Of a stretch of DNA of 64,000 nt, positions 1-28,542 are shown piece after piece. Source of the DNA: Xylographa opegraphella (Eukaryota); NCBI GenBank assembly GCA_022813865.1, contig JALDZX010000080.1:1-64000 (forward strand), read 5' to 3'. Position 1 is the stretch's first letter; every line of letters starts with the position of its first letter. A program made the position numbers and the translations under genes. A model generated the notes under the pieces. The model was not told the origin of the DNA, searched no databases, and worked only from the letters and a program-made list of their open reading frames with translations.

Positions 1-234
1 TAAACTTGCTTCCTTATATTATTCTAGGTTGAAATCGCTCACCTATAGCTGTGGTTCTAGGCCTACTTTTCTGGTGAGATAGCGAGCTGTAACACAGTTG
101 TTTTGAGAATTAAACTACCTTTAGCTTTAGACGTAACCGTATTATACTACAGCAATACCTCAGTCCCCTCTGCATGTTCGTATCCCAGTCCCCTCTGCAC
201 GTTCCAGCAATTGGATCATTATGCCACTTCACAC

Positions 235-1818
235 TCAAAACACCTTGAGAGGTTTCTTCTCGGTATAGAACAACCTCGATACCAGGATCATCGCCGACCC
301 TGCGAGGCACATGACGCCGCCAAAAACCTTCACGTCCAGCCAGCCGTTGGCCGAACTCTGCAGAATGGCTCCGCCGATGGGCGCGACGGTGAGGGTGGGG
401 ATCGAGATGGCAAGGAGCACTAGGCCGAGCCGGTAGCCAATCTCGGGCAGGGGCGAGACGGAGATGGGGAGGGCGCCGGAAAGACTGATGAAGGCTCCTG
501 ACGTGAAACCGAACATGATGGCGAAGCCAATGGCGATGGCCGAGTCCTTGGCGGGGATCCAGACGGCGAACAGAGAGATTCCGGAAAGGGTACAGGCGAT
601 GATGAACATATTCCATCTTCCGATGACATCGGCGCTATAACCGGCGACTAGACGGCCGAAGAGACTTGGGGTATAACCGTCAGCGTTCCGCAGCTTTTGA
701 TGTGGAGAGGGGCGGTAACAGGGCTGCGTGTCGACCTACCTTGTGGCGTTGAAGATGGACACCAAGTATTGAGCCAGCTCCTCCGACATGTGCGCCTCCT
801 GGAAACCCTGCACAGCCAGATAGACGATGGGGACGAATATGCCATAGGTCAAAACGAAGATACCCACCAGCAACATAACAAACGGGAGCTCTGTGAAGGG
901 TGCAGCAAAGCGGCTGGCCGGCATCTTCTTGGGTACTGACTTTGTTCTCGGACGGACTGTGAGGATTGCAATGATCTGCAGGCCGAGGATAATAAAGGCC
1001 GCAGTCCTCATGGTCCAGGGGTAGCCGGTGCTCTGGACCATACGACTGATCATGATGGGGAAGATGACGCCGCCGACTGATGAGCCTGTCACCATGATGC
1101 CCATAGCTGCTCCGCGTTTCTTGGCAAACCAGGTTGAGATGCAGGCAAGCGCTTCATCGCACAAGACTCAGTCAGCATACAACTTTCAAAGAAGGGGAGC
1201 GTCGGTCAAACTTGTCAGGCGTGTATAAACATGCAGCGCCGATGGCACTGCACACTCCCTGGGACAAGATGAACTGATAGTACGTGTTCGCCAACGACGC
1301 CATCATCAGCCCCAAGACGTGAAGAAGCGTCCCGCCAATTATGAGCGGCCTCGGCCCGTAGTTGTCGTATATTATGCCGACGACAGGCCCCAAGGCGAAC
1401 AGGAAGAAGAGTTGGAGCGCCGGAATCCAGGCGATGGTGCTGCTGGAGTAATCTTTCAGAGGTCCAACTTGGTAATACTGCTGGAAGCTGCCCACGCCGG
1501 GTGAAAGAGCATTGCTGTTAGTCCATCGCGTCACTGCTGGATGCCACGTAGCAAGAACCTAGGAAGGCATTGGGAGGAGGGGAAATCCGTACTGTTGACC
1601 CAGCCCGGACTGGAGAAGGAGCAGCACCACGCTCCCAGGACGACCAACCATGCAGTGGCGCCGCCATCGGGCGGGCCAGCGTCTTCCAATTTTGTGGCAT
1701 CGCCTGGCTTGTCGCCGGGAATTGGCCCTCTAGCGTCTTCGGGGTCCTGCTCAGTCTTGCCACCGAGATCGGACTCTGGCCGTGCAGCCTTCTCGGGGTC
1801 GGTCTCAAGGTCGTGCAT
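235..1818 (-). CDS. MFS transporter, monocarboxylate porter (MCT-like) family; probable cluster efflux pump; multi-exon
   Basis: Spliced ORF pieces give the family N-terminus PPDGGATAWLVVLGAWC, then GSFQQYY, IAWIPALQLF, DNYGPR, STWFAKKRGAAMGIMVTGSSVGGVIFP and many hydrophobic helices. ATG at 1818 (MHDLETDPEK), stop at 235. Confidence 0.93.
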
Positions 1819-2720
1819 GGGAGTGGTGTTTTGGGCTTTGTACGTGCTAGACAGGGTTAACACAAGTCGTATGATCACAGCAGCTGTGAAACTCGGTTGA
1901 ATATCCACGTATCAAGGCATGGTGATCGAATTGCGACCTAAAGAGAGTGATCTGAAGTCGAAGAGGAAACGGGAGAAATGAAAGAGTGTGGACGAAACGG
2001 ATTTAAATGAAATGTTTGACCTGAGGTTGATATTGCAACCAATCCCCCAGGTTCTGACAAATGCAATCAGTTATGCAAATTCGTGCAAGCGGTCGAGTAC
2101 ATTATTCAACCACGGTCTATACAGCCCTCAGAACAGGCAATTATTTACAATACAAGCAACAGCTGACTTTTGTATTTCGCATCGGTATTCCACTCGAAAG
2201 TGCGTCTCTACAATCAGTGAATGGGGAAGACAGCCTAAAAGCGGCAGATTTCCCTTCGAAAGTGCGCCTTGATTATTTTCAGCCAGTGAGGCAGACAGCC
2301 TAATAAAGGCAGGCACGAACAAAGAAGAATAGCGACATTATATAATCTTTTGATACAGCATTCTCTCCGACCATCCTGGTTTGCGTTAGGCGGTGGCACA
2401 AGTGCTTTTTTCTACAGGGAAGCAGACTTAAATCATGATGATTGTCTTCCCGCTACCTTGTTATTGAGGCCTGCTTACGTGATGCTCGATGAAGCCACGC
2501 CAGGAGTAGAAACATCTCAGAATGGGTATATTTAACACTTGTTGCAGCGTAGCTGCTATTAGAATGAGGGGGTTCAAATCGAACTTCGGGCGTTAGTAGG
2601 CAGATAATCCGCTCCGATCAGTACTTTTTTCCTGTTCGAGTTTAGCTTCTTCCACAGCGCTGCATATTTAGCGAGAGGTCCTGTCGCAATATGGGACCCC
2701 TATTTCGGGCCCATTATTGA

Positions 2721-2756
2721 CCGATGACCGAATGTTCGGATCGGCCGATCGAACAT
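2721..2756. promoter_or_regulatory. Candidate Zn2Cys6 binding sites in the MFS/TF divergent promoter
   Basis: CCGA-TGA-CCGA (reverse complement TCGG-N3-TCGG) at 2721-2731, directly followed by the near-perfect palindrome ATGTTCG(G)ATCGGCCGATCGAACAT at 2732-2756. Confidence 0.5.
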
Positions 2757-3230
2757 CATCCTGACCGAATATTATGTCCAATCAGGTGATGCATATGTAA
2801 TCATACGTGATTTTACGTAAGTTAGTTAACTTTAAAGTAGTTTATATAATCAACGTTATTTACGTAGCCTTTACAATATCATCACGTTCCTTATGCATTG
2901 TATTACACTGATTAGTCATCTGCAATTATGACATATTATTACATAATCTAACACATTGTAACAGGTCCCCTCGCGCTGGATCACCTGGTTGCCCCATGCC
3001 GAGCATACCAAGTAAAGCCGACTGTCTGGAACCAATGCAGGGCTCAGCCGGTATGGAACGTACAATACAGTGCATTCGAACTTGAGGTCCCCCATATCGA
3101 ATTACAAGACGTTGTTTGGTCGTATGTCGATGATTTACGTAGGAGTATTCTGATTTGAATACAAAGTGATGCCTCACAGTGCTCAAAGCCCACATTTTTC
3201 TTGGCTTATTAATTGATATCCAGACCTACC

Positions 3231-3313
3231 CACTGATAAAGGATTCTGTCACTGATAAAGAATTCTGCCATTCATACCACGGATAGAATGCTGCCACTGA
3301 TAAAGGATTTTGC
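3231..3313 (+). repeat. Three copies of a 19-bp unit containing a GATA element
   Basis: CACTGATAAAGGATTCTGT (3231-3249), CACTGATAAAGAATTCTGC (3250-3268), CACTGATAAAGGATTTTGC (3295-3313). Confidence 0.85.
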
Positions 3314-4236
3314 AGTTTAACCCTGCCAAGCTAAATTGGCGCTCGGGTATTGGCTCACCTACTGAATGGAAGCTTTCGCGGCAGTGGCCATGTCGGGTCG
3401 CGTGGGCCGAAAGACGAGGACGTTTGCATGTTGACGTTGAGAACTACAGCGGTCAAGTCGGGATAACTATCTACCCTTGCTTACCGAGGAAGCAGGCAAA
3501 TATGCCTGGAAAGCAACTATTTAACTTACCGTGATTACCGCGCGTAGCAGCCCTACAGGGTGCGAAATAGCAAGCACTAAGATAAGCGAATGACTTGTGA
3601 TAGGGCTGGTGTCAGAACTGCCGTCTGACAGCAAGGATGTAAGTCAAAGTCCCCTAGCGCTTTCAGCACTTTAGACCTCGAAGGATTTCTCCTGCAGGAC
3701 TGTCATGGATCAGGGCCGCGCGAACTTCGATGCAAACTCTGTCCATGGAAGGGCCGGACTGCGTCCGTAGAAGAACTTCTAATCCAAGAGAAACACTACC
3801 AGGTATACTATTACCCGGCTCAGAGATATATTGAGACTTTACGGGAATTATTCAGAGAGCTTGGTAAGTTATACTAAATATTTATAATGAGAAGCTGTTT
3901 GAGTCTTGGTACGATCGGGATTAACCTGATGCGAATGGGGTGTTTAGTAAATACTCGATACTCCGTTAATCCAATCATGGAACTACCTGACTTGGAGGCG
4001 GTCAAGCTTGTGTGATCCCTGTAGACCACCCTGATCGAACTAGTGTGATCAACATTTGTTAAGAAGGGGAAGGAGTGCCTTAGCTGATATAGGATCTGTC
4101 GTGTTAAATCTACCGCACGGACATTGACCACGAGCATCCTTTGAATGATACATTCAAGAGCCATGCAGCTCGTGGGTTGATTAAGTTACAGTCAAAAGAA
4201 AGGGAATAGAGAGAAAAAGTATAAAGAAAACGTATA

Positions 4237-5556
4237 ATGTCACATCGGCAGTCGTGTGATCGCTGTCGTCAGCAAAAGGTGAAATGCCTTCGAGATCAGG
4301 CTCAAAGAGGGGAAAGCAATTCTCTTTTTTCACGCCGAACTCCCTTTACTCGGTGCGAGCGGTGTACGAAAGCAGGCGTAAATTGTGTTTACAGCCGTAC
4401 GTGTTGCTTTGATCTCCCTATCCAATTCGTTTCTGTTTATTACATCTCGAGGGATAAATCGGAATAAGTCCCAGCTGATAAAGATCTCGCAGTCACCCCC
4501 ACTATAGCGGAACAACGAACTAATCGTCGCTCTGTTCAGACTTCAGTTCGAAAAGATACCGACTCCGGGTCTAGAAATGTGAACGGCACATCGTGGTTCG
4601 AGCAAGGCCTAGCCGGAGCAGTGTATCCGGGCGGGCCATCCCTGGGGGCCGACTTTATCGACCTGATGGGTCAGTTTCCCGGCGTTGGTGAAAGCGGGGC
4701 CGTCGCCGGCTTCAACGGCTGGGACAGAAACCTCCAGCCACTTTCACCAACTTCGTTAAACTGCTTGACAGTACCATCCGCGGCAGATGCGGTCCCCATT
4801 TCCACAGCTCCATCTACTACCGACGGTCGCGAAGACAGCGAAGACGTCGACGACGACAAAAGCTCTACCGACGGCCTGTTCCCACAGCTGACGTTCTTGA
4901 GCCAAAGAGCTACTCGGGCTATGCGTCGTCTTGTCCGCCCGGGCCGTGCGCCTCTGACCGTATCGTCGCCCGAGGTAAACGAGGCGTTGGAGAACACAAA
5001 TACCCTGATACGCATCATCAACAACATCATCACGCCACATCGTGACGATATCACCCTCGACCCAACCACTACCGATAAGGGGCTGGCATTCTCGGCCCTC
5101 GCTTGCCACCAACATCTCGTAGCCCTGTTTCGAGCTATCTGCGACGCCATACGTTGCTGCCTACAGTCCAAGAAAGATTACCAGCAACAACACCATCGGA
5201 GCCGACAAAATAGCGGCGTAGGACCGTCCTCGGTAGCCCAATTTGTCATGGTGCTTCAGCTGCTGATGCACCTGATCAACCGCATGGACCGGAGTCTCTT
5301 TCAGAACAATCCATCAGCATGGCACGACGCTGGGTTGTTCAACGGCGGCCATAGTACCCCGGTCACGCCCGACATGGCCCATCATTCTACCATAGACCCC
5401 ATACAGTCCGATGTAACGGCAGGAGACTCATCACCACACGGTGGCCTTCTCGTCCTTGTGCAGGACATTGTGGGGACGATACCCAACCAGCACGAGAAAT
5501 TGAGACAGGTCATTCAGAAGCTGCAGGCAGAGATGGAGCACTCGGAGCTTCACTGA
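4237..5556 (+). CDS. Zn(II)2Cys6 pathway-specific transcription factor (2 exons)
   Basis: Exon 1 encodes [12 protein letters not shown]...[20 protein letters not shown] intron at about 4397-4507 joins it in frame to the ORF ending at 5556. Confidence 0.92.
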
Positions 5557-6374
5557 TGGAAAGAATCACGGACGGACGTCAGAGAAAACGGGATTCATGT
5601 TTCACCAGTAGACCAATCTAGATCGCCATGCTGTAATTAGCGTAGAATTACAGAAACACGGTCGACTATGGGTACAGGTGTATCGACCAATCCCAGGAGA
5701 ATTGGGGGCCTCCGTGGCCCTGCTCGTCGAGACAACACCGTTGTTAGTATAGCTCAACTGGAAGTCGTTATCAGTGCGGGCCTATAAGCGATAAAATCTG
5801 GAGAATGCTGTTGACTCAAGGTGCATGAAACAATATAATCTCACCCATTTGAGGCTGTATAAATACACTACTAGAGTTTACGAAAAAGTGTAAAACTTCA
5901 GACCTTCGCAAGCTCAGGGGAATCTGAGTTCCAGTCATTTCGTATACTCATGAATTTAACTCCGTTAAATGCGGCGCTAAAAATGATTGGCTCTGCTAAG
6001 TGACATCACATGATCTCGGCCCGCCGATCCGGGCTTTCCCTTACCGCTTCGAAGACCCTGATTAGGCGGCTGCTAGTTAAATTAGCTTAAGCGCCTCGGA
6101 GACGGCCTATCACCATATTCTTTTACACTGCATTTACTCTGTCGACTTGGTCTGTATACACCTAAACATTTTCGACTTTTCCCTTAAACCCCGATGGCCG
6201 AGAAAGCTCAAAGGATGTTTGCCAGCTACAGGGTGCTTCTCAGCCAGGTTAGTTCAGAACAGATTCAACACAGCATAGGTTGCACGTCTTCATTTTTCTT
6301 TGCTGGTATATATGTTCGATCAAACTATATTCTACTCTCACCGAATTGGATATAATGCCTGTCGCCAAATCCCC

Positions 6375-7504
6375 TTAGAAGGCCATGCGCCGCTTCAAAA
6401 AGTCTAGCTGCCTGCTTAGAATGCTTTCCACATCTCCAAATACCCAATCAAGATGTCCCTTGCCCTTCAAGATGTCAAGCTCCTTTGGCTCTTTCATGTG
6501 CTCATAACACTCGAGCTGGTCCTTTGTGGGGCATGAGAGGTCGAACTCTGGCGTCACCATCATGACTGGCGTCGGCGAAATATACTGCACGACGTTCAGG
6601 ATGTTCCACGACAGGCTTTTGTAGTAGGTCTGAACGGAGATGCGGTTCTCGACGGGTATGCCGAGTCGCTCGAGAGCAGGCATCATCTCGGCGGGGAGCT
6701 GGAGGCCATTGGGAATGCTACCGTCCTCGTTGACATAGGGGAGGTACATCGGCTCTTCGCCGGCCAGGCGGCTGGCGCGGTCGTGTATGGCCAGCTCGAG
6801 AATCGGCCCGCGTCTTTCCGGATTGCCAGTTGAGTCGATCAGGGGCGCGACCGCGATCGCGGCTGCAACTCGCTTGCTGCAGTCGGGTTTCTCGTCAGTC
6901 AACTGGAACTGGGGGCGAGGGATACAAGCGAAGGGAGCGGCAAATAGACAGCAAGAGAGATCATGACAGGGATGAAGTTACGTACTCAAAACCTGCTGCC
7001 GCAAGGGTAACATTGCCACCAAAACACAGGCCCCAGAGCGCGATTTTGGTCTCATCGACTAAAGTGTTCTCTTTGAACCAGGTCACGGCGTCGTGGAGGT
7101 GTTCAGCCTGCTGTCTTGCGTCGATCTACGCGTCCGCACAGAGGCTCAGAGGTGATTCTCCAGCTGGAGACGGCCCCAGGTTCACAAAACTCACATCATT
7201 TCTTGGCTCTCCATCGCTGGCGCCTATGCCTTGAGGATCATAGAGAAGGCAAGTGATGCCATGCTCTTGAAACCACTTTGCGATGTCGGGCAGGATGGCA
7301 TCCTTGGGCATGTTGAACTACTCGGACGTCAGTCGATGGGTGCTTCGAATTAAGCACCGAGCGGCTGGTGGCATAGGTACGCACTCCTGGGGACATGATC
7401 ATGGCTGGGCCGCGTTTTGAGGCGGAAAACAGCCAGCCACGTAACGTCAGGCCGTCAAGGGTTTTGAAGTCGACATCGAGGCGGGGTAAAGCGCTGACTG
7501 TCAT
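6375..7504 (-). CDS. Alpha/beta-hydrolase-fold polyketide transferase/thiohydrolase (GrgF/af380-like family) with a Cys nucleophile; 4 exons
   Basis: [41 protein letters not shown], nucleophile elbow [10 protein letters not shown] (Cys codon 7024-7026), [14 protein letters not shown]-terminal GKGHLDW. Three GT..AG introns are readable. Confidence 0.9.
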
Positions 7505-7831
7505 TGCGTCCTTTCGGGAAAGATCTGAGGTGGAGACAAAAGCTCGGAATAGGTGCAGGTGCAGTCAGAGACACTGAGCCAGGCTGATTGTATAGGTAGA
7601 AAGCGCGGTATGTAATTTGTAATTACCAGGCGAAGGTTGATATAAATAAAAATACTTTTATACCTTTGTAATATCAGCGTAGCCGGCCCCATACTCTAGC
7701 TACCTATATAAAGCAAAAAACCCTTCAAATCCAGTAATTTTATATACCTTGCTCATATATGTGCAAAGTCGGAGTCTTGAGGCCGAGCTCGGCTACCGGT
7801 CCGGTCTGGCTCGAGTATCGCGACGTCGGAA

Positions 7832-7842
7832 TCGGAGGTCGG
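7832..7842. promoter_or_regulatory. TCGGAGGTCGG, candidate cluster-regulator site upstream of the hydrolase
   Basis: The identical 11-mer occurs at 9718-9728, and it lies in a CGG/CCG-dense patch at 7769-7850. Confidence 0.5.
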
Positions 7843-8386
7843 GGACTCGGTCAGCCCTGCGGCTATCACCTTAAGCCTTAAAGGTACCTTATCTCTTACT
7901 AGGTACCCTTACCTTAGGTAAGGCTACTGCTGACACGGGATGACACCGATGCCTCCCGACATCCCTGCAACCACCTGGAGGCGGCACAGGCGCCAAAGCA
8001 GTCTTAAAGCGGTACCTTAAGGCTTAGTGTGCGGTGGCGCGGCAAAAATTGCGCACAGATGGCCACGACGTAGCCTGAAATTACCTGATGCAATAGCCCA
8101 TACGAAGCATTAATACCTCATAGGTAAGGTAGACAGTAACGGGAAGCAATATCGTCGCCTACAGCTTCAGCAGCATCGGTGACATGCCGTAGAAAAGTCT
8201 GCTTGTTGGTAATTCTCAACTTACCGCGGGAGACCTGGCAATGCCACTTCTCAGTTGCTTACCCTGGAGGCCGAACAGTACAGCAATCACAGCATTTACA
8301 CCAAGATTGTGAAGGCGTGGCCACGTCAAGCTGGGTCTTCTATTGCGCCAATTATTTACTCAGCTACTTAACGATGTATACTCTGC

Positions 8387-9498
8387 CTAGTGACCCAGCA
8401 ATGGCACCACGACTTTTTTGGCATGCACCTTTCCACGTTTCATGTCGTCCATAGCCACATGCATGTTTGCGAATCCGCCATCCTGTATTTCCAGGGGATG
8501 GTGCCTGATGCTCCCATCGTGCAGCCAGTTCTCTGCCAGGGCAAACAACTGCTTGCCAAACTGCCTGTGCTCGGGTGAGGGAGGGCGCCCATATGTTCCC
8601 GTCATATGGGATCCGTCCCCCATAATGGCGCTGGCCAGAAACCAGTCAGCACGAACATCCCTTCGCGTATACTTCACAGTGGTAGCGATTGTCTCGAGTG
8701 CGATATAGCTGCCGCCGGAAGAACCGATGGCTTCATAGCACATCTTCATGGTTCCAGCGTCGGCGACGCAGTCCAGGACATATCTTAGACTGCTGTCAGT
8801 GTGCACACGAATATCAGCACCACAGGCGGAAGAATGGTAGTCGAAGCAGGCTGTGGCGCCATAAGACTCGCACAGAGCGTTGTTAGTAGGCGAACAGGTG
8901 ACAATGGGTGTATACCCGGCCCTGCGAAGAAGAGGTCAATGAGGGATAGTGCTGGAGGGCAGTCTGGTAAGTCCGCTCACAGTCTCAGCAGCTGCGTTGC
9001 CATGGTGCCTGTGGCTGTAGCACCTCCCGAGACGAGCACGGTCTCGCCCAAGCCCCCTTGCATTGCCAGCTCTAGTCCGGGGCCCTGAAAAAGAGCCAAG
9101 CCAGCTGTAGCCATAGAAAGCCCGATGGAACATGCCTGCGTGAAGGTGAAGGCCTCGGGGATGTGGCAGCTGATGTCCTCTTCCGCCAAAGCGAACTCAG
9201 CAAAAGCACCTTTTGTCTTGTCCGAGGCATCCAAGCCAAAGGTGAGGGCGAGTACACGGTCACCCTCCTTGAACCGCGTAACGCCTTCGCCCGCCTTTGC
9301 GACTGTGCCGGCAAAGTCACAGCCACCTAGGGACCCGGGGGCGGTGGAATAGTCAACAATCTTCGCGTCTCGTGGGTTTAGAGCGACCGCATGCACACGG
9401 ACTAGCATTGAGCCTCGTTTCGGAATGGGGATGTCGACATTCTCGACAAGGCGATATCCGCCTGCTTCGGCACCAACAAGAGCCTTCATAGTAGGCAT
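8387..9498 (-). CDS. Trans-acting enoyl reductase (LovC-like, MDR superfamily); 3 exons
   Basis: VRVHAVALNPRD, GCDFAGTV, FKEGDRV, GAFAEF, VLVSGGATATGTMATQLL, LRYVLDCVAD, GKVHAKKVVV. ATG at 9498 (MPTMKALVG). Confidence 0.95.
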
Positions 9499-9717
9499 AA
9501 AATTGGTATGAACTATTCTGCAAGAGATTACAGAGAGTAATGGCAGACAAAAGAAAGTATACGTCAATCTGAAACTTTTTTTTTGATTCTGTGGATTCTA
9601 AACCCAACTCCCAAATTCAGCTCAATTGCGCATCGGCCGACGCAGCTACGGGGTTGTCGGTGCATGTCGGTGCACTCGGCATGTTCAACCCGAAGAGAGC
9701 CGACATGGTGGAGCGGG

Positions 9718-9728
9718 TCGGAGGTCGG
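9718..9728. promoter_or_regulatory. TCGGAGGTCGG, candidate cluster-regulator site in the ER/PKS divergent promoter
   Basis: Identical to 7832-7842. ATCGGCCGA at 9632-9640 also matches the core of the 2732-2756 palindrome. Confidence 0.5.
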
Positions 9729-10053
9729 AGGTGTGGCACAGCATAACCACCGGTGCTGACATAAATCCAGACACCCAGTTTAGATCCAGAACCAGTACGG
9801 GTAGGGAAAACTTTGGAAATAATTCTTGGAGATTTTAAGCTCATGGGCCAAGTTAGGCTCCGACTCGGCATTGACTGCTCGAGGCCATTGGGTCGCATAC
9901 CTTGCTCACCTTATATCTTTTAGTCCTCGCTATTTCAATATTTGCTCGTCTAAGAAGTATTGAACTTGTATCATCTTGTCGACTTTCTCTATCCATTCGG
10001 TTTCAGGCCTGTTTCCTTTAGCCTTGCCCATCGCCCCTATCGAAGTCTTCACC

Positions 10054-13000
10054 ATGGGGAGCCAAGGAGTCGAGGGCAACTCCCTTTACTTCGCACGCGA
10101 GCCCATTGCGATAGTGGGCAGCAGCTGCCGTTTCCCCGGTGGCGCCACCTCTCCCTCCAAGCTTTGGGAGCTTCTGGAGAGACCTCGAGACGTTTTACAG
10201 GAAATTCCAGCCAGTCGTTTCAGCACTGAGGCGTTTCACCACTCAAACAGCCAGCACCATGGAGTAAGACCGCGTTCCCATATCTGACATTGGAACTTGA
10301 ACTCATGTGTTTAACTCGTTGGCAACAGAGCATGAACGTCAAGCACGCCTATCTTCTCGATGAGGACCCCCGCGCCTTTGATCGTGACTTCTTCTCCATT
10401 AACCCAAAGGAGGCTGAGGCTATGGATCCCCAGCAACGTTTGCTTCTCGAGACAGTGTATGAGAGCATTGAATCGACCGGCTACTCAATGCAACAGCTTC
10501 GGGGGTCGTCCACCGCTGTGTTCGTTGGATGCATGAGCTTCGATTACCAGTTCACTGCCATACGGGGCATTGACAGCCTGCCCCAGTACCACGCAACTGG
10601 GACTGCCGCGTCAATTTTGGCCAACCGCGTGTCGTACTTTTATGACTGGCGGGGCCCCTCGGTCGCTATCGATACAGCCTGTTCTTCGAGTCTAGTCGCC
10701 CTACACCAGGCAGTTTCTGCCCTTCGAAACGGAGAAGCCAAGATGGCAGTCGCGGCAGGCTCAAATCTTATCATTGGACCTGAGCCATTCATTAGCGAAT
10801 CCAAGGTTTGTTATACCACTGCCCGGTGCCGAGAAACTTTGGCACAATCTGACGATCAACACGCAAGCTCAACATGCTGTCACCCAATGGACGATCCTTC
10901 ATGTGGGACGCCGCTGCGGATGGATACACTAGGGGGGAGGGCTTTTGCGCCATCTTTCTTAAGACACTCAATCAAGCTATCGTTGACGGTGACCATATTG
11001 AATGCATTGTTCGCGGGACAGGCGTGAACTCGGATGGCAAGACGCCGGGTATATATATGCCAAGCCCCTCCTTAATTTTCCCTGCGGCGCGCTGAACACA
11101 ACCAATCTTAGGCATCACAATGCCGAGCTCCGAGTCGCAGGCACAACTTATCCGGGACACGTACGCCAGGTGCGGGCTCAACCCGGCTCGCGAATCCGAC
11201 CGCCCACAGTACTTCGAGGCCCATGGCACAGGCACGCCAGCGGGTGACCGTAAGTGGCATATTGCATTGTTTTCACCGCTTTCCTTGGGACTCATCCTGA
11301 CGGGTACTAGCTATTGAGGCCCGGGCCATTCAAAGCGTTTTCTTTCCCGACGAAAAGCATGGCCAGCTCATGGTTGGCAGCATCAAGACAGTCATCGGAC
11401 ACACCGAAGGCACTGCGGGAGTCGCCGGTGTACTCAAGGCGTCGCTGGCAGTCCAACACGGCCAGATTCCTGCGAACCTTCATTTCAACAAGCTTAACCC
11501 CAAAATCCAACCATATTACACGAACCTGCGTATTCCGACCGAGACGATGCCCTGGCCCGCCGTTCCGCAAGGATGCCCGCGCCGTGTTAGTGTTAACAGC
11601 TTCGGCTTTGGTGGCACCAATGCCCACGCTATCATTGAAAGCTGGAATGGCCCTAGCTCCCTCACGAACGGCCACGCGCCGAACGGCCACGCGCCCAATG
11701 CCCAGGCTGGACCTTTCCTCCTGTCTGCAAACTCGGGCCCGGCTTTGGCGGGAAGTGCGCGAGCGCTGGCCAGCTATCTTCGCGGAAGTCCTGATACGGA
11801 TCTCGGCCGACTTGCCTACACTCTGTTTCGGAGGACAGACTTCCCATTCAGAGCCGCCTTCTCTGCCACATCTGCGGAGCAACTTGCCGACAAGCTCGAA
11901 GCGGCTAAGGATTCTTTCAAGAGCAGCTCACGCACCGCAACCATTCCCGAGGTGCTACCACCCCGAATCCTGGGCGTCTTTACCGGCCAGGGTGCCCAGT
12001 GGGCTACAATGGGCAAGGAGCTCTATGGCGCTTCGAACCTGTTCCGTAGCTCTATAGACCAGATGCAGCGGAGTCTCGATTCACTTCCCGCGAAAGATCG
12101 CCCCGACTGGCTCTTAGTCGATCAACTTGACGCGCCGGCAGAGACTTCCCGCGTCGGCGAAGCGGCTGTTTCGCAGCCTCTCTGCACTGCTCTTCAAGTC
12201 GCTCTGGTCGATGTCCTGCGTGCCGCCGGTATCGAGTTCTCTGCTGTTGTCGGACACTCGTCTGGTGAAATTGGCGCCGCGTATGCTGCGGGATATCTCA
12301 ACGCCACCGATGCGATCCGGGTAGCATACTACAGAGGCGTTCACTCCCACCTAGCGCAAGGACCGGGAGGGAAGCGCGGAAAGATGATGGCGGTCGGTAT
12401 GTCCTTGAACCAAGCGACTGCTTTCTGCAGCGAGTTCGGCGGGGCGCTTGTCGTGGCTGCCAGCAACTCCCAAACGAGCAGCACGCTGGCAGGCAACGCC
12501 GAAGCTATTGAGGATGCCCACACTCGGCTGCAGGAGAAGGGTAGCTTTGCCCGCGTGCTGCAGGTTGACACGGCGTATCATTCTTGTCACATGAAGCCAT
12601 GCAGCACCCCGTATCTCGAGTCGATGAAGCAGTGCGGGGTCAAAGTTCAGAAGGGCCGCAGACAGTGTCGGTGGTACTCGAGTGTTTGGGGATCGAATGG
12701 CCGCATTCGGTCATTCGACCAGGCCGATGGCCAACTTCTCAAGGGCCAGTACTGGGTCGACAACATGACGCAGGCGGTGCTCTTCAGTCAGGCACTTGCG
12801 AGAGCGCTGAACGAAGACCAGTACTTTGACCTTGCTCTCGAAGTCGGACCGCACCCGGTTCTCAAAGGACCAAGCTCCGAGACTATTAAAATGTTGACGG
12901 GCCTCTCTCTTCCGTACTCGGGAGTTTTGAAACGTGGACAGAACGCGGTAGAGTCGTTTGCCGATGCGCTGGGGCTCCTGTGGACGTCTTTCCCGTCGCC

Positions 13001-16000
13001 ACGCCCCATGATCACCTTTGACGGACTACGCAGGGCGTTCCAGGGTGGCAAGTCGCAGAAGCTTGCTATACTGAAAGATCTCCCAGCTTACTCGTGGGAC
13101 CACCCTGGCCTCATCTGGAAGGAGTCGAGATCATCTCGTATCTTCCGTGCCCAGAGCCAACCACGCCACGAGCTTTTGGGTCATTCTGTTGCGTACGGCG
13201 ACCGTGACAAGCGCGAGGTGCACTGGAAGCAGCTCCTCAGGCTGAACGAGCTCCCATGGTTGGCCGGCCACAGAATTCAGGGCGAAGTCTTATTTCCGGC
13301 GTCTGGCTACCTGTCGATGACATATGAGGCCGCCACCCGCCTTGTCAACGATCAGCAGCCATTACGTCTCGTAGAATTGCACGATATCGATATTGTGCGT
13401 GCTATACGGCTCGAAGAAGATTCCTCGGGTCTTGAAGTTGTCTTCACTATTCGCGTTACGAGCCAATCTGATGACTGCATTGCCGCCGAGGTTGCCTGCT
13501 ACAGCGGTGCTGTCGACTCGGCTCAGCCTTTGGACACCCCTCAAGCCGGACTCACAGCCCACTTTACCGGAGGTGTGCGGCTCTGGCTAGGCCAGCCCCA
13601 CAACGACGCTTTGCCTCCGTGGACCAAGCCTCTGCTTCCCATGAACACTTTAGACATGCAGCAACTCTACTCAAGTCTGTCTAAGGAAGGCTTCAACTAC
13701 GCCGAACATTTCCAGGCCAAGTCAATGCTCCGGCGGCTCAACCGTGCCGTGGTGACCGTGTCCTCACCTCCTGAACCCTCTTCGATACGCGCCTGCATGC
13801 ATCCTGCACCCGTTGATACTGCCTTCCAAGGTTTGTTGGCTGGCTTCTCATTCCCGGAAGATGGTCGCGTCGGGAGCATCTACCTACCGACGCGGGTGGA
13901 GTGTGTCAGGATCAGCATGATGCCCTCGGAGTCGCATACCTCTGTCCTCACCGCCGATGCGACCGTGACCTCGACGGCTAGAACCACCTTCACAGGCGAT
14001 GTGGACCTGTTCGACGCGGCGGATGCGCACATGAAAGTGCAGATACGTGGAGTCCACCTCACCGCCGTTGGGCAACGCCGGGACCCCTGGCTCTACGCAG
14101 GCACAACGTGGGCAAGGGATGCCGACTATGGGATTGAGCCAGGTCTCGGGGCCAATCTTTCGGAAGCAGACCGGGTGTTATACGAGCAACTCTCACGCAC
14201 GGCTTACTTTTACTTACGCCAGCTTCGCAAGAAGATCCTGCCTCAGGAATTAATGCTGATGGGTAAGTATCGAAAACACATGATGACTTGGGTTATTGAG
14301 CATCTGTTCCCCCAGATCGAGGGTGGGAAGCACCCGGAAGTTCAGCCCGAGTGGAAAAATGACACGCTCGAGATGGTGCAGCAATGGCGGGCCAGCCAAC
14401 CATCGGACAACAATGATATGAACATCCTCCACGCCATGGGGAAAAATCTGGTCGGAATTGTCCGTGGGACCACTCCTCCCCTCAGAGTGCTTACGCAGGA
14501 TGGCATGCTCGACCGTCTGTATGTGGAAGGACTCGGTGCCCAGGATGGCAACGTTGATCTCGGCGCCATAGTAAAACAGCTTGCGCATCAGCATCCGCGC
14601 ATGCGGATCGTCGAAGTGGGAGCTGGCACAGGCGGTACTACACGGGCAGTTCTAGATGCACTAGGAAATCAGTTTACGTCCTACACATACACAGATATAT
14701 CTACAGGCTTCTTTGAAAACGCCCGTACCGTGTTCAGTCAGCATAGCGGCAAACTCGCTTTTAAAACGCTTAATATCGAAAACAATCCCGTGGACCAGGG
14801 GTTCGCTGAAGGAACGTTCGATATAGTTATTTCCTCGAACTGTTTACACGCGACGCGAAGTCTAGGGGAGACTTTGCGTCACTGCCGACAGCTCCTCCGC
14901 CCCGGTGGCCGTTTGGTATTGCTGGAGATTACTCGAGACTTTCTGCCTACGCAGCTGATTATGTCAACGCTCCCCGGATGGTTTCTAGGCATAGAGGACG
15001 GGCGAGTCTGGGCACCCACTGTCAGCGTCGAGCGATGGGACGAGCTGCTGAAGGCCAACGGGTTCTCAGGGGTTGACGTAAGCTCGACACCTTCCTTCTG
15101 TTCCGTTATTGTGGCGCAGGCAGTTGACGAGAAGGTACAACTCCTTCGTGACCCGCTTGCTGTCTCTCCAGCGGCGCTTCCGCCACTGGGCGACATCCTC
15201 ATCATAGGTGGTTGTGTCAGTTCCAAACTCGCATTCCACACTCAGGCAATCTTACAGGCTGCTGCTCCCTTCAAGACTGTCATCGTACTGCCTGGACTCG
15301 AAGGCATCCAGGGGCCCAAGGGAGTAGCTGTGCTCTGCCTTGGCGATCTGGAGAGCCCCGCGTTCCGCAATATGAATCAGACGAGATTCAGAGGATTGCA
15401 GGACGTTATGGAGACTGCAGAAGTGGTTTTATGGGTAACCTCGGGTGCGAAGTCAGGCAAGGATCCTGACGCCAATATTACTCTGGGACTATCGAGCACG
15501 TTGCGGGCTGAGCGCATGGACCTCAGACTTCAATTCCTCGACGTCGACGACCCGTCATCTGTTGACCCGTCCATGCTGGCAAAGATGCTTCTCCGTCTCG
15601 TCTTCCACGACCCATCCAAGACTGACGAACTGCTATGGACCCAGGAGCCCGAGCTTGTGCTGAAGAAGGGCGCCCTCTACATACCCAGAGTGCTATCTCT
15701 CGACACCGTTAACCGTCGGTCCGCCGCGAGGCTCCGGCAAGTCACGCAGGTGGCCAGCCTTGAATCTAAAGACACGGCCGTGGTGCTCGACGAGCGCCAG
15801 GGAGCATTCGAGCTGCAAGTTGTTCCATTTAGCGGTGCCAGAGAAGTCGAGATGCGCCTGCAGGTCACGGCTTCCTCGCTTCATACCCTGACCTGCGACG
15901 GGCACGGGCCAGTATATGTCTGCTTCGGTCGCGACCTGGCATCGGGAGACAAGGTCCTCGCTCTTTCGGGTGGAAACAGCTCTCTGGTTCAGGTTGCCGA

Positions 16001-17762
16001 GGATCACGTCTTGTATCGCTGGCAGCACGACAAGACGGCCGCCGAAGACACTGCACAGCTGCACCTCTTCCTGGTACGGTCACTCGTGGAACACCTGCTC
16101 CACGGCTCGAATGGGCCTACGTGGATTCACGGCGCACCGAGTGAACTCAGCGAGGCTATTGACGTAATTGCCCGCGAGCAGGGCGTCACCGTGTTCCAAA
16201 CCACATCGGATATGGCGAGGACTTCGGACGTCAAATTCATCCATCCCTACGCGAGCGAGGGAGATCTGCAAGAAATGTGTTCTCAGGGCCTGCAAAGCTT
16301 TGTCAACCTAGCGCGCCCGCAACACGGAACATTATCTGCGTTAATTCGTGCTTATTTGCCTGCCTCGGCCATCGTAAACAAGGAGGTCGAGGACCTGAGC
16401 GTCGGTTTGAGCCTCTCCGAACTCCGCAGCCTGGCCAAGCAACATCTTCACAGCGGCCGGCAGGTTCCCGCAGAGCATGTTGAGGTTATGGCCATTGACA
16501 AAGTTTCGACAGTGACAAGTAAGGAGTTGAGGCTCACAGCCGTGGTTGATTGGAGTACTGCCAATACACTTAGCGCCCTGGTCCTCCCTCTCGAGCACCG
16601 CGGGCTATTTGCTTCCGACAAGACATATCTCCTTTGCGGCATGACAGGAGACTTGGGTATCTCGGTGTGCCTGTGGATGGTGGACCACGGAGCTCGAAAC
16701 GTGGTCTTGACCAGCCGGAACCCCAACGTGTCTCCCAGTGCGCTTGACTACCTGTCGCGCAAGGGAGCCACCGTGCGACCTATAGCCGTCGACATTGCGA
16801 ACATTGACTCCCTCCGCACCACCTATGCCGACATTAAGTCTAGCATGCCGCCTATCGGAGGCGTGATGAACGCCGCCATGGTGCTTCGGGACCGTCTTTT
16901 TCTTCATTTGTCCTGGGAGGACTTTGCCGCCGTGTTGGCGCCTAAGATGTTAGGGTCCAAGAACCTTGACGAGATCTTTGGCGATGAACAGTTGGAGTTC
17001 TTTATCTGCTTCTCGTCCACGACTTCCATTGTCGGAAGCATTGGCCAGTCTGCCTACGCTGCCGCGAACTACTACATGGCGAGTCTTGTCCAGCAGCGAC
17101 TTCAGCGTGGCCTGGCTGGCTCTGTTATTCACATTGCCATTCTCACGGGCTTTGGATACATTTTCAGGCGGGATGCCGAGCATGCCGAGACCATTCACAA
17201 GGCTATCCTTCCGCGATTTGACAGGCAGTCAGAGACGGACCTGCACGAGATGCTAGCGGAGGCCATAGTTTGCGGACGCCCTGGCTCGGACCAGACCGCT
17301 GAGCTCATTACCGGCATCAGGACAGTCTTTCAGGGCGAGTGGCGCGACGACCCTCGGCTATCCTGCTACAGCGGCCAGCAACAGCTACAAGACGATTCCA
17401 GCCAAAAGCCAGCCGCTGGGTGCGTCAGCGTCGAGGCTCAGCTCGCCGCGGCCAAGGACCCGGCCGAGTGCTTGGTCATACTGGAAAAATGCTTCGCGCT
17501 GGCCCTGGGCAACTTGCTCGAGATCGACCCTGAGCAGCTGAACGGCAACATGCCAGTGGCCAGCCTAGGCATCGACTCCCTCGTGGCCATCCGGATCCGG
17601 GAGTGGTTCCTCAAAGAGATGGGCGTCGATATGCCGGTCCTGAAGGTCATGTCGGACAGCTACTCGATGTCGCGCATGTGTGACGATGTGCTTGTGGACT
17701 GGCGGAGGCTAAACAAGTCAGATGCAAAGGAGAAGGAAAACGCTCGCGCAGCCGAAAAATAA
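10054..17762 (+). CDS. Highly reducing iterative type I PKS: KS-AT-DH-cMT-(inactive ER)-KR-ACP
   Basis: [63 protein letters not shown]. c[42 protein letters not shown] region lacks the NADPH motif (reads WIHGAPSEL). Four short 5' introns, then one long exon. Confidence 0.97.
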
Positions 17763-18240
17763 GTTCTGCTTGGATTATCGGGGAAAGCTTATTAAGCCTG
17801 AAGTAGTTTCACTACATTTTATGCATGTTTACTTACTTTTATAGTACTTGGTGAACCTTATCCCGGCTCTGAAGGGTTGAGAGTTTCAAGGATAAATAGT
17901 CGAAGGTGATGAACGCGGCTTTTGTTCACCTTTACCAGTGTGCCATGATATACGTGCTGCGTTATACAACCTTCAAGAATGGGTGAGGTCGGAACGAAAT
18001 ACTATAGAGTTGAGCAATTGATATTTAAACTATATAGTGAAATGCACTGGCGACGCGAATCGAGGCTAGAATAGCCCATCATTATCCCCAGTCAATTCAG
18101 CAGTCTTCAGGGGGGGATTTGTAAAAGTTTAAATAAACGTACGTAGAACCGTGATTTCTGATATTGCAGTTTTGAATTTTGGGTTTTGTTTTTAAAAACC
18201 CTTATCGCCCGCCGTACGTGTAAGAATACATTTAACGAGA

Positions 18241-18267
18241 GCGCCGACGCAGGCGCGGAGCGGCTAG
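18241..18267 (+). mobile_element. Possible Helitron-like 3' terminus (hairpin plus CTAG)
   Basis: GCGCC-gacgca-GGCGC hairpin, 7 nt, then CTAG (18264-18267) at the end of an AT-rich tract. The stem is only 5 bp and the next base is C rather than the usual T. Confidence 0.3.
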
Positions 18268-19035
18268 CTTCTTTTGGGCTGTATTTATACGCCCCCCTAC
18301 CCTCAACTTAAAATCATTCACAGTAGAAATTCACGATCACTCTACTGTATTTTTAGTCAATATATAACATTACACGAGAAAAGAATGGTTGGGCAGCAGC
18401 GCTGCTTAGCAAACACAACCGCATGTCGCAGATGGCGCGTCGTAGCATTTTGAGTGTGGCCGTCAATTGTAGCAACCTCTTCGATCTCAACACCCTTCCG
18501 AAAATTATATATACGTGCATGATGGCGGAGAGTAAATATCATAGAGCAGAGCTCGTAGATATAGATGTATGGGAACACAGCATCCACCTCGTCGAAACAA
18601 ATACAATGGTGATCAGCACATTTCAACGAGTGGGAAGGAACCGTCTCCCAGATCATATCTTTGGATTCTTCCAACGGCTGGCTGATCGGCCTATCGGCCA
18701 CCATCCAGGCCTCCACTTCTCACACCATATCTGCCATCTTGACAAGTGTACTACTTCCTGCACTGGGCTTGCAGCTCTCCGTCTAAAAGCAGTGCATTCC
18801 GTCTCCCAAGTCCATTCGGGTAGCGTCGAGTCCCCTTATAGCTTTCATGTATTGCTCCTACTGGAAAGCCGGAGCAGGCGAGTGAGGAGGCCAGGGGAGC
18901 GGCGCAAAGCGGCAAACAGCTGGGGATTCGGGTGTGCACTGTGGCTGGAAGGCAACAGCCGGGGGACGTGAGTTGTGTCAGATACCTAATGTGGAACTAT
19001 CAGCGAAGGTTTCGATGATTTCGAGGAGCCGTTAT

Positions 19036-19095
19036 TTGTTGGGTTTACCTCCGTGGTAGAAAGCGTTGTTGGGTTTACCTCCGTGGTAGAAAGCG
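19036..19095. repeat. Exact 30-bp tandem duplication
   Basis: TTGTTGGGTTTACCTCCGTGGTAGAAAGCG x2. The minus strand reads TLSTTEVNPT-TLSTTEVNPT. Confidence 0.95.
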
Positions 19096-22000
19096 TCAGC
19101 GGCTTTGCATCAGTAGAATCGCAGAGTTGAGCGGCTTAGGGTTGAGGTCGGAAAATGGACTTCCACCAGTTGGAGCCGACAGGCATAGATACTTGGACGA
19201 CACGAGAGTACCGCCACTCTCACGCAGCTGATGGGGAGATTTGATCAGAGACGGCGCATAAGTCCGTACTCACAGCAAGTACGGGAAGGCAACGAAGAGT
19301 GCGAGTGCATGAAAATCAGGTAATAAGAAGCAGGTTTAGTTTCGCAGATGTCAATATCTCCCTTGCTGCTAACATTCATACCCATGAAACATGAGGATAC
19401 AAAATTGGAGGGTGAACAGCTAGGATCTAATACTATCGAGTGCCACAAACTTGAATGCGAAGTAACCCGCCTCATCTTCTCACCGCTCCGCTAATGGCAT
19501 CACATGCTTTGCGTCACGCCGCATATTACAGGATGAACGGTGGAGAACGATAGTTCGTGGGAACTCTCGTGGTCTCGTGGTGGCTGCCAGGATGGTGTGG
19601 AGGACATGTGGATGACTGCAGATCCGCGGGTTGAATATGCGACTTCATTTCGAATCACACCCATGCCGTGATGGTGCTTGATGATGCGGTGTGGCCCAGG
19701 TGCATTGCTGGATAATTTCAAGGGGGTTAGCTTGTGCTACCACACCTACGCCCGGCTTAGGACGTGATCTGTGTACCCTTTCGCATTGGCATACTCGACC
19801 GCGAAAGGTGGAAATTAAATTCCCCAGATTTAGTCTCTTGAGTATTGTTTAACTCTACAACCGATCAGACGTACCTATATGCCGACACTGGGTTAGAGAA
19901 ACGGGACGATACTTTCCATCGATGGTCTGTTATGCCTCGGTAGAAGCCCGGAGCTCCTCTGTTGCAACACGTGTTTACCTGTGTGGCTTTGCTATACATG
20001 TCCTGGTATACATCTCAACATCATCCTGCTTCATTTGACGGGCTTAATTATCCCGATTCTGGCCACGGTGCGGCTTTCAAAGATTTTAAAAAGACAGACG
20101 AGACCTTGGAAATATCAGGCATAGGGTAAGAGACAAAAGAACGGTCATCGAATTCTGCTGACTTATAGAAAATGCATTTTCTTTCCGAAACTTATGTTCA
20201 AGCAGCTTATTGGTGCATAGTACGCCATGCATGGTTGCAGCTATCCTTTGCGCGGTATATTGGCTTGAGAGACACTCTGGAGTTCACAAGGCATTCTTGA
20301 AGCGGATAAACTTGGTGACCTTGTCTGAGATGCTCATGAACTTCGAAGCAGTAAGCCAGCAGGAGCCAAGAACTTATGAGACACCAAACACTATCACTGC
20401 TGGCGGAAGACCCTAACGGAATACTTGACCAGCTTCGACCTCTCGATGCGCAGAAGTCAACAAACATGCTAGGCTTGTAAAACGGGAGGTCCACGGAATT
20501 CACGATAAGGCGGAAGCCAAAAACTGGTGAGCCGGGCATATCGTCTATCAGTTCATGCCATTGCGACCGCCAGAAGCATATCCAATGTCTTTCTGGTCCT
20601 GGGACAAGTAACGTTGCTAGCGTTGTGCCAACGCTTTCATGGAGGTCCTGTTAGATCTTGCTTCGCCGTTGTGTGGAAGTGAGTCAAGCAAGTCCAGATT
20701 ATTTTTGTGTTATGCTTATTAAGTTTTACACATCCAGCGAAGCATATTTCATGTATCGATCCGGGCGCATGCGCGACTTTAGGGTGATTTCTTCCGAGCC
20801 GTTTACCATGAGTGATTTCACTTCATCACTACAGAAGAAGCAAGACTGACCAGATCATGTCGATGAGCTGTGTGTGGCTTGAATTGAGCTTTCCGTGAGC
20901 ACTTTGGCAAACGTGATTGAGGTCTACCCATATTGCTCATTGTAAGATGCGCATTTGTTTCTTCTTCGTCCAGTACTGTCGTCGTCGATGTCTTCCACCA
21001 GCAGGAGTACTTCCAAAGCCATGCGCGGGCTAATACATTACCAGCGCTTTCTTAGAATTGTGACGGATGAGTTGAGGTCGTCGCGATACCACCTCGAAAT
21101 CAGGAGGAATCAGGATTGATAGGCAGGAATTATCGACACGGCTTGCATCTGGCGCGGGGAAATCACAAGAAAGCCTTGCGACAACAACTGGTACACCATC
21201 AGGACTCTCTCAGACTGCGTCTATGGTTTATAGTATTAGGAAAGGTGCTTGGTTCCTTCAGGAATGCCCCGGTCTCAATTAGCATGGTGCTTTATCGCAG
21301 TTGTCAATGAGTACTTTTGGACCCCACACTATCCTATTGCGGAGATAGCGGCGACGCATGCGCACGAAGTGTCAGAAATTAAAATCAAGAGGGAGCCAGT
21401 ACCAGTACTCCGTGGCTTCCCGTCCATCGTTCATACCCACAGCAAATGAGGGCGCTGGGATCGTGTCACAGTGAGAATATGCTGAGATATTTGCCACAAG
21501 CAAGACGTCTCTCCATGGTCGCGAAAAGTCGGAATTAAGTTTGGGCCTTCCGGGTCCGCTAAACACACGTCATCCCGCTGATGTTTGGCCGAGATGAGCC
21601 GGGATCTAAGGGTTAGGGCTTCTTACAAACATCGCACCGTGTTTCGATTGCTCCTGAGAGTTCACACACCTTGCAATTAGATGTCACCTGTGATGGCGTA
21701 GCACGGCTATGCAAGAGCGTTCTCGGCGAGGCCGTGAGTCGTACTTATCTTCTCAAAGGGTGATGTTGGCGCGCTTGAGGCTCGTAGTGCGTGTTGTCGA
21801 TCTGCAGCATAGCAATCGAGGCCCGTGGTAAAAGCGTCGGGATCATGTAGATGTTCGGCTCACGTGAAGGCAACGTATAGATAGCTGCACTGTTCACCTC
21901 GAATTCGGTGTTCTCCGACTTCCGACTGGGGAAGAGAAAACCGTTGGTCGATGATGTGTATATGCAGTGTGATGAAATGTGACGATCGCCCGTTTGTAGC

Positions 22001-23444
22001 TTCGTCCAAGATTTCCAAACTCGGAATCACCGTCTCAACCACAGGCTACAGGGCATTCAGCCACACTCGACAGAAGGCGAAACTCGCGGAGGCAGTCGAA
22101 ACGACATGATTGGATTGTGGGAAGCCACTCACCACCGTAGGGTGTAGCGTCCCTGACCACTCCCTCGGGTTACTCGATGGGTCACATGAGATGATCGCTT
22201 TGCATGCAGGAGATGAGGCCTCCGGGATGCGACCACATGGGATCCGGGCACGAGCGATAGGATCGCATCTACGGCCGCAAGTCGGTCTGCTGTCTTTCCA
22301 TCGCACTGGAAATTCCAAGATGTATGTTTCTAGAATCTCATATTCCCGCCCGTGCAGGAGCTAAACCGTATTGAAGCGTGTCCGTCGACCCACTCATGGC
22401 TTCCTGCATCCTTCCATTTGAAGAGACAAAGCTTAAATTGTTCTCCGAGCAGCTAGTAAATGCAGGCCAGCTGGCACTTTATCCCAGTAACAGACAAGGA
22501 GGTGCACAGGACCCAATAGCAGGCTCAATCGCAACGGCACACACATTCTCGAGCTCGGTTGCTCTGCCCTCTCGATTCCAAAACATCTCTGCAGTTACGG
22601 TGGCAATCGCCAAATGCGCTCCGGGCTCTCCAGTCAGGTTGCATACTTGCTTCGAGAGATTGACTGATATGGTCCTTGTAACTTCTGTCCTTAATAGAAG
22701 AATCTAGTTCATTGGACGAGCTGCAATGAACCCACAAGCCCAATGTAACGCTGCATCTGCCTACTGAACTCGTGTTCGTTACCGCTAGGGGCCTATATTG
22801 TGCCGATAGCCTCATTTCTGACAGACCCACCAACCTTCTCCTCGATAACACTAGTATGCTAGTGCCTTCCTTCCGTTACTGACAGCCGTTGATCTTTTAG
22901 ACATAGCCCTTGGAACCTTCGCAGACTTCTTGTAGGCTCAAGGAGCAATTGTAGCGCTAGTCCAGGGTTATGGTTGCCTTCATTTGCGATCCAGCCGTGG
23001 GCTTCACAACTTGATGTTGCTCTCCTTACGACTGCCACAACCCGAAACACGAGGGATTTAATCGTCCGCAATCTCGTCACCCTAGAACTCGAAGCTGTGG
23101 AGGTACACGTATAAGATGGCTTCTCTCCACGCGTTCATTCACCTTGAATGTGCTTCCTACAGCAAAACCCTCGACACCACCTTCTTTCCGGCATCACGCC
23201 TCTCCCCTGCGAGCGATCTCAATCGGAAGGATATCAGTCAGAGAGATTGTGCGATTCTTCGTAACTCATGATGCCGTAAGTACTACCAGCCTGATCTCAC
23301 ACTTCTGAAGGACTTTTCCACAAGCCTGCATACAAACCAGCTTTCAACAATATATCTTTTCTGTAATACGACAACCATTCTCACCAGTTGTCATCCCCAC
23401 TACCCATAATGACAGTCTGGGTTCTTGACTGACTGGCTTGACAA

Positions 23445-23792
23445 ATGTATAGTAACAACGACACGCGTAACAACCAGAATTGCGCCAGCAACGTCCGGCA
23501 TAATTCTCACGGGGCCAGAGAAAACGCTAGAACTTCGAGGCAAGAAGCTCAACATCAGCGACGCGAACCACAACCTCAAAGGCCACCGCCCCGACCAGTG
23601 TCATCTCCCTATCCACCCAGAGAGTCCCAACAACAAATAATGCATCAAGCGGTCCAGCTCAACGCGGTACTCAGCGCGGCAACACAAGGACAGTCAGGTG
23701 GAGCAAGACAAGCCTCTCGAGAGCAGTACATCAGGAACTGGGAAGAACATTGGAGACAAATAAGTGACCGTACGGTACAGCAGAATGGTTAG
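23445..23792 (+). CDS. Small Gln/Arg/Pro-rich hypothetical protein
   Basis: 115-aa ATG-initiated ORF with an amphipathic C-terminal stretch (REQYIRNWEEHWRQI). No recognised domain and the start is uncertain. Confidence 0.45.
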   Translation: MYSNNDTRNNQNCASNVRHNSHGARENARTSRQEAQHQRREPQPQRPPPRPVSSPYPPRESQQQIMHQAVQLNAVLSAATQGQSGGARQASREQYIRNWEEHWRQISDRTVQQNG

Positions 23793-26123: not shown

Positions 26124-26476
26124 CTCTCTGTTATCGAGACGGAGTCCACGTCTGATTAGCAGTCCCGATCCTTCGGATAGAAGTTTCAGTAAATACTTGA
26201 TAGCGTCTGTGGCACTGTTTGTATGCTATAATATGCTTCATCTGTAGTCTAGGATTATCAGATGAGGCTGTAAAAGGTCCACAGCTTTCTTGCTTTAACT
26301 CCAACCATGGAATACGATTGCGCGATAAGGGCTACACCCTCTGACTTCGCTAGCTCGAAAGTCAATACCTCATCCCCCGCTTCAACGCAACGGAAACTTC
26401 AACTGCCTAGTTTATAATTAATTTGTTCAACGACTTTATTTTCCGTTAAACTAAAAGACTGGTACAGATCATAATC

Positions 26477-28542
<2,066 letters not shown>

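Follow-up and report, generated by a model that had tools for sequence, protein, structure and literature searches.

The window analysed here is a 64-kb stretch of DNA. Its left part carries genes for an MFS transporter, a Zn2Cys6 transcription factor, a hydrolase of the α/β-hydrolase fold, a stand-alone enoylreductase (ER) and a highly reducing polyketide synthase (PKS), and its right part carries genes of other kinds, among them a homogentisate 1,2-dioxygenase and a tRNA synthetase (Table 1). The PKS is transcribed divergently from the enoylreductase and hydrolase side.

The hydrolase gene lies on the minus strand (7504-6378). The reverse complement of 7015-7035 (TGG GGC CTG TGT TTT GGT GGC) encodes W-G-L-C-F-G-G, the nucleophile elbow that the original prediction had placed there. 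This motif sits in a stop-to-stop frame of 54 codons (6961-7125, minus strand). The elbow exon had been described as absent from the ORF track, and this fits, since a frame of 54 codons is shorter than a common ORF cut-off of 60 aa. Three further minus-strand frames flank it, and all four are read as a single gene. Joining 7504-7385, 7317-7195, 7125-6986 and 6876-6378 with a coordinate-joining script gave a predicted coding sequence of 885 nt including the stop codon, with no internal stop codons and a product of 294 aa. The three introns of this four-exon model are 67, 69 and 109 nt long and all run from GT to AG, with the donors GTGCGT, GTGAGT and GTACGT. The phase-2 junction between exons 3 and 4 (GA/C) rebuilds Asp128, as it is in GrgF, the hydrolase of the gregatin A pathway. 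In the spliced product the Cys of the elbow is residue 115, exactly as had been counted beforehand from 40 + 41 + 34 codons, and the His noted earlier in GKGHLDW is His269 (within GKGH-LDW), while Asp240 lies within TPEFD. When searched with Pfam, exon 3 gave a DLH match (positions 79-117; 21.8 bits, just above the cut-off of 21; E 0.00016) and a nearly equal Peptidase_S9 match, both around the elbow. The elbow motif is not a chance occurrence, because the 54-aa frame by itself matches GrgF with an E-value of 8.5e-24 and pairs its Cys with Cys115.

Table 1. Genes and sequence features of the 64-kb window; E-values are from Pfam for the cluster genes and from matches to GrgF for the hydrolase exons.
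Feature	Position	Strand	Details
MFS transporter	110..1558	-	several exons, may reach the window edge; Pfam MFS_1 in three consecutive minus-strand frames
Zn2Cys6 transcription factor, probable cluster regulator	4225..5556	+	Pfam Zn_clus, E 3.2e-05, in 4225-4464; long frame 4468-5556
Hydrolase, exon 4	6375..6876	-	last base of codon 128 to codon 294, stop codon 6377-6375; GrgF 128-294, E 6.4e-102
His269 codon (exon 4)	6455-6453	-	
Asp240 codon (exon 4)	6542-6540	-	
Hydrolase, exon 3	6986..7125	-	140 nt; codons 82-127 and first two bases of codon 128; holds the nucleophile elbow; GrgF 82-129, E 8.5e-24
Nucleophile elbow W-G-L-C-F-G-G	7015..7035	-	Cys115 codon TGT, 7026-7024
Hydrolase, exon 2	7195..7317	-	codons 41-81; GrgF 41-81, E 1.5e-24, 40/41 identical; weak Pfam Hydrolase_4 match
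Hydrolase, exon 1	7385..7504	-	codons 1-40; ATG 7504-7502; donor GTGCGT from 7384; GrgF 1-40, E 1.6e-16
Stand-alone (trans-acting) enoylreductase, GrgB-like	8387..9597	-	two coding frames with a short intron between; ADH_N E 3.1e-14, ADH_zinc_N E 1.1e-05
Highly reducing PKS, GrgA-like	10230..17762	+	KS-AT-DH-cMT-(PF23114 NAD-binding region)-KR-ACP; true start upstream of 10230
Homogentisate 1,2-dioxygenase	24747-26123		
α-Amylase-family gene	26450-28542		
Class II tRNA synthetase (prolyl-tRNA synthetase class)	31175-32794		
Nucleoside hydrolase	48319-49362		
Mediator Rox3	56747-57481		
bHLH protein	58682-59980		
DAO-family oxidoreductase	62721-63998		runs off the window end

The content of the cluster was assessed by Pfam scans of stop-to-stop ORFs. 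These covered (i) ORFs of at least 150 aa up to ~32.8 kb, (ii) ORFs of at least 70 aa in 1-4.5 kb and 17.7-24.8 kb, (iii) ORFs of at least 90 aa from 28.5 kb on, and (iv) ORFs of 45-69 aa in the cluster flanks; exons shorter than 45 codons would escape them. Pfam recognised no ER domain in the PKS (10230-17762). A stretch of ~310 residues between PF23114 and the KR, the usual place of an ER, may be a degenerate ER. No second PKS or KS was present among the scanned ORFs of the window. The four Pfam scans likewise found no P450, no O-methyltransferase, no other methyltransferase outside the PKS and no other oxygenase near the cluster among the scanned ORFs of the 64-kb window. In the probable regulator gene, the Zn2Cys6 frame (4225-4464) and the long frame that follows it are in the same reading frame with one stop codon between them (4465-4467); this stop is most likely part of an intron. 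On the right-hand side of the PKS, ~7 kb (17763-24746) had no Pfam match in any ORF of at least 45 aa, and this Pfam-empty stretch marks the right border of the cluster. It includes a perfect tandem repeat of two 30-nt units at 19036-19096. An ORF of 204 aa at 18357-18971 was taken as non-coding: it had no Pfam match, and its translation was unconvincing.

Each exon of the hydrolase gene was searched separately by phmmer against the sequences of all solved structures (PDB). For all four exons the best solved-structure match was GrgF from Penicillium sp. sh18 (PDB 6LZH, 294 aa), and the matches were colinear, covering its residues 1-40, 41-81, 82-129 and 128-294. By a hand count over the four exon alignments, 268 of the 294 residues are identical (~91%). 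Of the 26 mismatches, eight lie in residues 1-40, and the elbow, Asp240 and His269 are free of them. The exon 3 alignment pairs the Cys of the window protein with residue 115 of the 6LZH chain. The two proteins therefore have in common their length, Cys115 in WGLCFGG, and Asp240 and His269, the last two of which we take to be catalytic in GrgF. Given the equal length, the colinearity across four exons and the ~91% identity, the hydrolase gene is predicted to encode an α/β-hydrolase-fold orthologue of GrgF, a relationship that goes beyond mere similarity. A GrgF-like enzyme with Cys115 is what had been proposed from the sequence at the outset, and the alignment agrees with that proposal. The enzyme type, its Cys and the logic of one PKS making two chains were reportedly published in a 2020 paper on GrgF. 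Thus, the enzyme type is already described, and the window gene adds one more example of it.

Is the Cys at the elbow a feature of the whole family or of one part of it? Homologues were collected from two protein searches with exon 4 and from a search of 1.84 billion cluster representatives. The family alignment has 73 rows, consisting of the window protein and those 72 of 218 homologues that are 260-345 aa long; the other 146 (fragments or other lengths) were left out. In the elbow column, 29 of the 73 rows have Cys (the window protein and 28 homologues), all with at least 52.1% identity to the window protein, and 40 have Ser, all with at most 43.1% identity. All 28 aligned homologues with at least 52% identity, among the 72, keep the Cys. 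Every row (73/73) has H in the column of His269; in the acid column, 70 rows have D and three have E. The alignment of the Cys with the catalytic nucleophile had been set beforehand as a test, and Cys115 does fall in the column that is Ser in the distant homologues (40/73). On this alignment, Cys115 is the nucleophile-elbow residue.

The Cys clade is marked by twelve specific positions: P44, W55, L114, C115, N119, G145, R149, E155, L156, M171, W272 and F274. The 11 residues besides C115 are invariant within the Cys clade and seldom occur in the Ser group, and the window protein, as read from its sequence, carries all 12 residues. In the aligned set, Cys versus Ser cleanly divides the GrgF clade from the other members by sequence identity, a result that is new here. 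The remaining four rows have neither residue at the elbow: two have Phe (in WGFFYS-) and two have Gly (in WGSGLSG and WGAGHSG). In these proteins (P0090, P0108, P0194 and P0217) the Asp and His columns are nevertheless conserved. Either the proteins are inactive or differ in some other way, or the alignment has a local shift.

Other known hydrolases can be set beside the window protein. The dienelactone hydrolase family (Pfam DLH, PF01738) comprises the classical Cys-His-Asp α/β-hydrolases. Its members have a Cys nucleophile in G-x-C-x-G, as the window protein does, but the similarity is borderline and local, and substrate and reaction differ. The polyketide acyltransferases and thiohydrolases Fma-AT/af380, CalD and Bref-TH are presumably Ser-type members of the hydrolase family under study, with Ser in G-x-S-x-G where the window protein has G-L-C-F-G, and the chemistry reported for such enzymes is O-acyl transfer or hydrolysis. 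The second-best solved structure is PDB 7D78/7D79 (“DltD domain-containing protein”), which comes from Beauveria bassiana according to an excerpt of a preprint. 7D78 aligns with the four exons with E-values from 8e-05 to 1.5e-18 and shares the fold, the elbow position and the GKGH histidine with the window protein. However, its elbow is WGMSFGG, with Ser, and its identity to the window protein is within the range of the Ser group (at most 43.1%).

The PKS and the hydrolase differ in how they are represented among known proteins. The PKS frame at 11301-17759 (plus strand) is 100% identical to a 2414-aa protein (P0220) named “Polyketide synthase 19”, which NCBI labels as from the lichen-forming Xylographa opegraphella. 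The next PKS matches are at 90%, at 86% (Xylaria), 82% (Penicillium and Rhexocercosporidium), 74% (Cadophora gregata) and 65% (Fusarium). For exon 4 of the hydrolase, neither length class of the protein search contained a protein with 100% identity, and the best matches were at 93% and 90%. What is new here is a hydrolase gene without an identical entry in the searched protein collection, although the adjoining PKS has one. The simplest explanation for the lack of an identical entry is that annotation overlooked this short-exon gene; in public records the hydrolase gene probably has no annotation or a wrong gene model. Also new is the very high identity of the cluster's proteins to those from five fungal classes, which suggests, as far as sequence comparison goes, either horizontal transfer or a co-assembled contaminant. 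An excerpt of PMC5468452 already voices a suspicion of horizontal transfer for fujikurin-like clusters.

A metagenome search yielded 124 pattern matches, which came down to two loci, L001 and L002 (3.5 kb). In L001 (1-20498) the hydrolase is 81% identical to that of the window. The PKS and hydrolase are divergent and are followed by an RTA1-like gene, a fungal regulator and a GH2 glycosidase. On the hydrolase side of its PKS, L001 shows neither a P450 nor an O-methyltransferase, and the interval between the PKS and the hydrolase has no enoylreductase ORF of at least 100 aa. To judge from these arrangements, gene order in the cluster family is evidently not fixed.

What GrgF does has been summarised in several reviews, of which excerpts are used here. 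The product of GrgA is a pentaketide in the presence of GrgB and a diketide in its absence, and GrgF fuses both (PMC8902786); a fusion by GrgF of two chains made by GrgA is likewise stated in PMC8948627. The fusion is of the Claisen type and gives the precursor of the gregatin furanone (PMC12304814). Another excerpt assigns control of the condensation to grgF and formation of the furanone ring to grgG, and names grgD as the O-methyltransferase (PMC10288003). Both GrgF, as these reviews present it, and the window hydrolase accompany an ER-less highly reducing PKS and a trans-enoylreductase. The GrgF-type mechanism is the best reading of the window gene because of the 91% identity and the same partner enzymes. 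We therefore consider it very probable, on sequence grounds, that the hydrolase is a GrgF-type enzyme that fuses two chains of the single PKS by way of Cys115. Two parts of the original prediction bear on this. The proposal that the enzyme fuses chains rather than acting as a thioesterase gains support from its predicted orthology to a reported chain-fusing enzyme. The proposal that one PKS makes two chains which the hydrolase joins fits both this orthology and the context, in which a single PKS with no recognisable ER stands alongside a stand-alone enoylreductase.

By this mechanism, the single PKS would make a longer, reduced chain when the trans-acting ER acts on it and a short β-keto diketide when it does not, as the review excerpts on GrgA, GrgB and GrgF imply. 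Cys115 would then take one of the chains as a thioester acyl-enzyme, a step that follows from ordinary α/β-hydrolase chemistry and, reportedly, from the 2020 paper. On the same basis, His269 and Asp240 would serve as the base that generates the enolate of the β-keto diketide. Attack of the enolate on the acyl-enzyme would form the C-C bond by a Claisen condensation, after which hydrolysis would free the fused product from its carrier. A gregatin-type furanone or a fujikurin-type product would then be made from the fused acid. The putative catalytic role of Cys115 in this scheme is supported by its alignment position and by one preprint sentence, which lists GrgF/6LZH among cysteine hydrolases (excerpt of bioRxiv 10.1101/2020.12.16.421545).

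There are alternatives to a chain-fusing enzyme at work in the labelled organism. The hydrolase could merely release or transfer one chain, as a thioesterase, a Bref-TH-like thiohydrolase or an acyltransferase like Fma-AT or CalD, with the Cys as an alternative nucleophile for hydrolysis or O-acylation. Ser-type members do predominate in the wider family (40/73 rows), and among the matches, source names such as “polyketide transferase”, “acetyltransferase fmaC” or “peptidase S15” occur. These names, however, are automatic transfers based on similarity. GrgF itself is said, in the abstract of the 2020 paper, to perform hydrolysis as well. It is also loosely called, in both cases in passing and not from experiment, a “thioesterase” in the bioRxiv excerpt and a “TEII with an editing function” in an excerpt of PMC11476836. 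Fma-AT and CalD are described in the PMC8902786 excerpt as acyl-transferring and not C-C bond-forming. Against this, the window protein is ~91% identical to GrgF over its full length and at most 43.1% identical to any Ser-type member, and four reviews, in the excerpts used, give GrgF as a chain-fusing enzyme (PMC8902786, PMC12304814, PMC10288003 and PMC8948627). We regard action on a single chain as very improbable. A different objection is that the gene is silent, or derives from a contaminant fungus that was co-assembled, and so has no role in the labelled organism. That no protein identical to exon 4 was found, though the adjoining PKS has its 100% match, could point this way, and it is unusual to match proteins of unrelated fungal classes at such very high identity. 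Yet the gene shows no damage in its reading frame, at any splice site or at any of the 12 clade-specific residues, and the window also bears ordinary housekeeping genes, for a synthetase of the prolyl-tRNA class, a homogentisate dioxygenase and mediator Rox3. A silent or foreign gene is thus quite improbable.

The third alternative accepts the Cys-dependent chain fusion and concerns what becomes of the fused chain. The fujikurin (PKS19) cluster of Fusarium fujikuroi has five genes, for a highly reducing PKS, an enoylreductase, a hydrolase, a transcription factor and a transporter (excerpt of PMC5468452). All five gene kinds are present within 110-17762 of the window, and these are exactly the kinds that the window cluster holds. 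It could therefore be a five-gene cluster of the fujikurin type whose end product is not gregatin A. P450 and O-methyltransferase genes are absent from the scanned ORFs of the window, which agrees with this, and in an excerpt of PMC10657286 antiSMASH links a single Phacidium region with gregatin A as well as with the fujikurins. The fujikurin hydrolase (CCT72379, “polyketide transferase FFUJ_12241”) stands in a cluster of the same five-gene make-up as the window; the function given for it in a literature excerpt is a proposal. Sequence identity points the other way. The window hydrolase is ~91% identical to GrgF as against 76.5-76.8% to two Fusarium homologues (P0075 and P0076), which share LWGLCFGG with the window protein and are candidate orthologues of CCT72379. 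The PKS is 82% identical to that of Penicillium daleae and 74% to that of Cadophora gregata, as against 65% to that of Fusarium proliferatum. Moreover, the window starts at the transporter gene, so that tailoring genes could sit just outside it. By sequence, the cluster appears nearer to the gregatin side than to the fujikurin side, and we consider a fujikurin-type cluster possible but rather doubtful.

Chain fusion by a GrgF-type enzyme remains the preferred reading whichever scaffold results. The window PKS is labelled as from a different organism than the GrgF system, and no grgD-like O-methyltransferase or grgG-like gene was found among the scanned ORFs of the window. A complete gregatin pathway thus cannot be demonstrated for the window. 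With neither a P450 nor an O-methyltransferase among its scanned ORFs, and with the same gene set as the five-gene fujikurin cluster, the window leaves the end product uncertain and does not allow a gregatin-type product to be told from a fujikurin-type one. If the contig is the lichen fungus's own and tailoring genes are absent elsewhere, the symbiont would have acquired a chain-fusing cluster, probably horizontally, that stops at the fused β-tricarbonyl acid or makes a non-gregatin scaffold. We think this combination unlikely.

The key enzyme of this cluster is encoded by a short-exon gene of the kind that ORF-based tracks miss, and the value of finding it lies in annotation. Once the hydrolase is recognised, the cluster becomes readable as a one-PKS, two-chain, chain-fusion pathway and not as a plain reducing-PKS cluster. 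The occurrence of the cluster type in five fungal classes adds to the suspicion of its horizontal movement expressed in PMC5468452, as excerpted. For the family, the comparison provides a rule for genome mining: an elbow Cys at 52% identity or above and Ser below 43%, together with eleven more positions of the Cys clade. These positions are also targets for mutagenesis to learn what makes such a hydrolase a C-C bond former.
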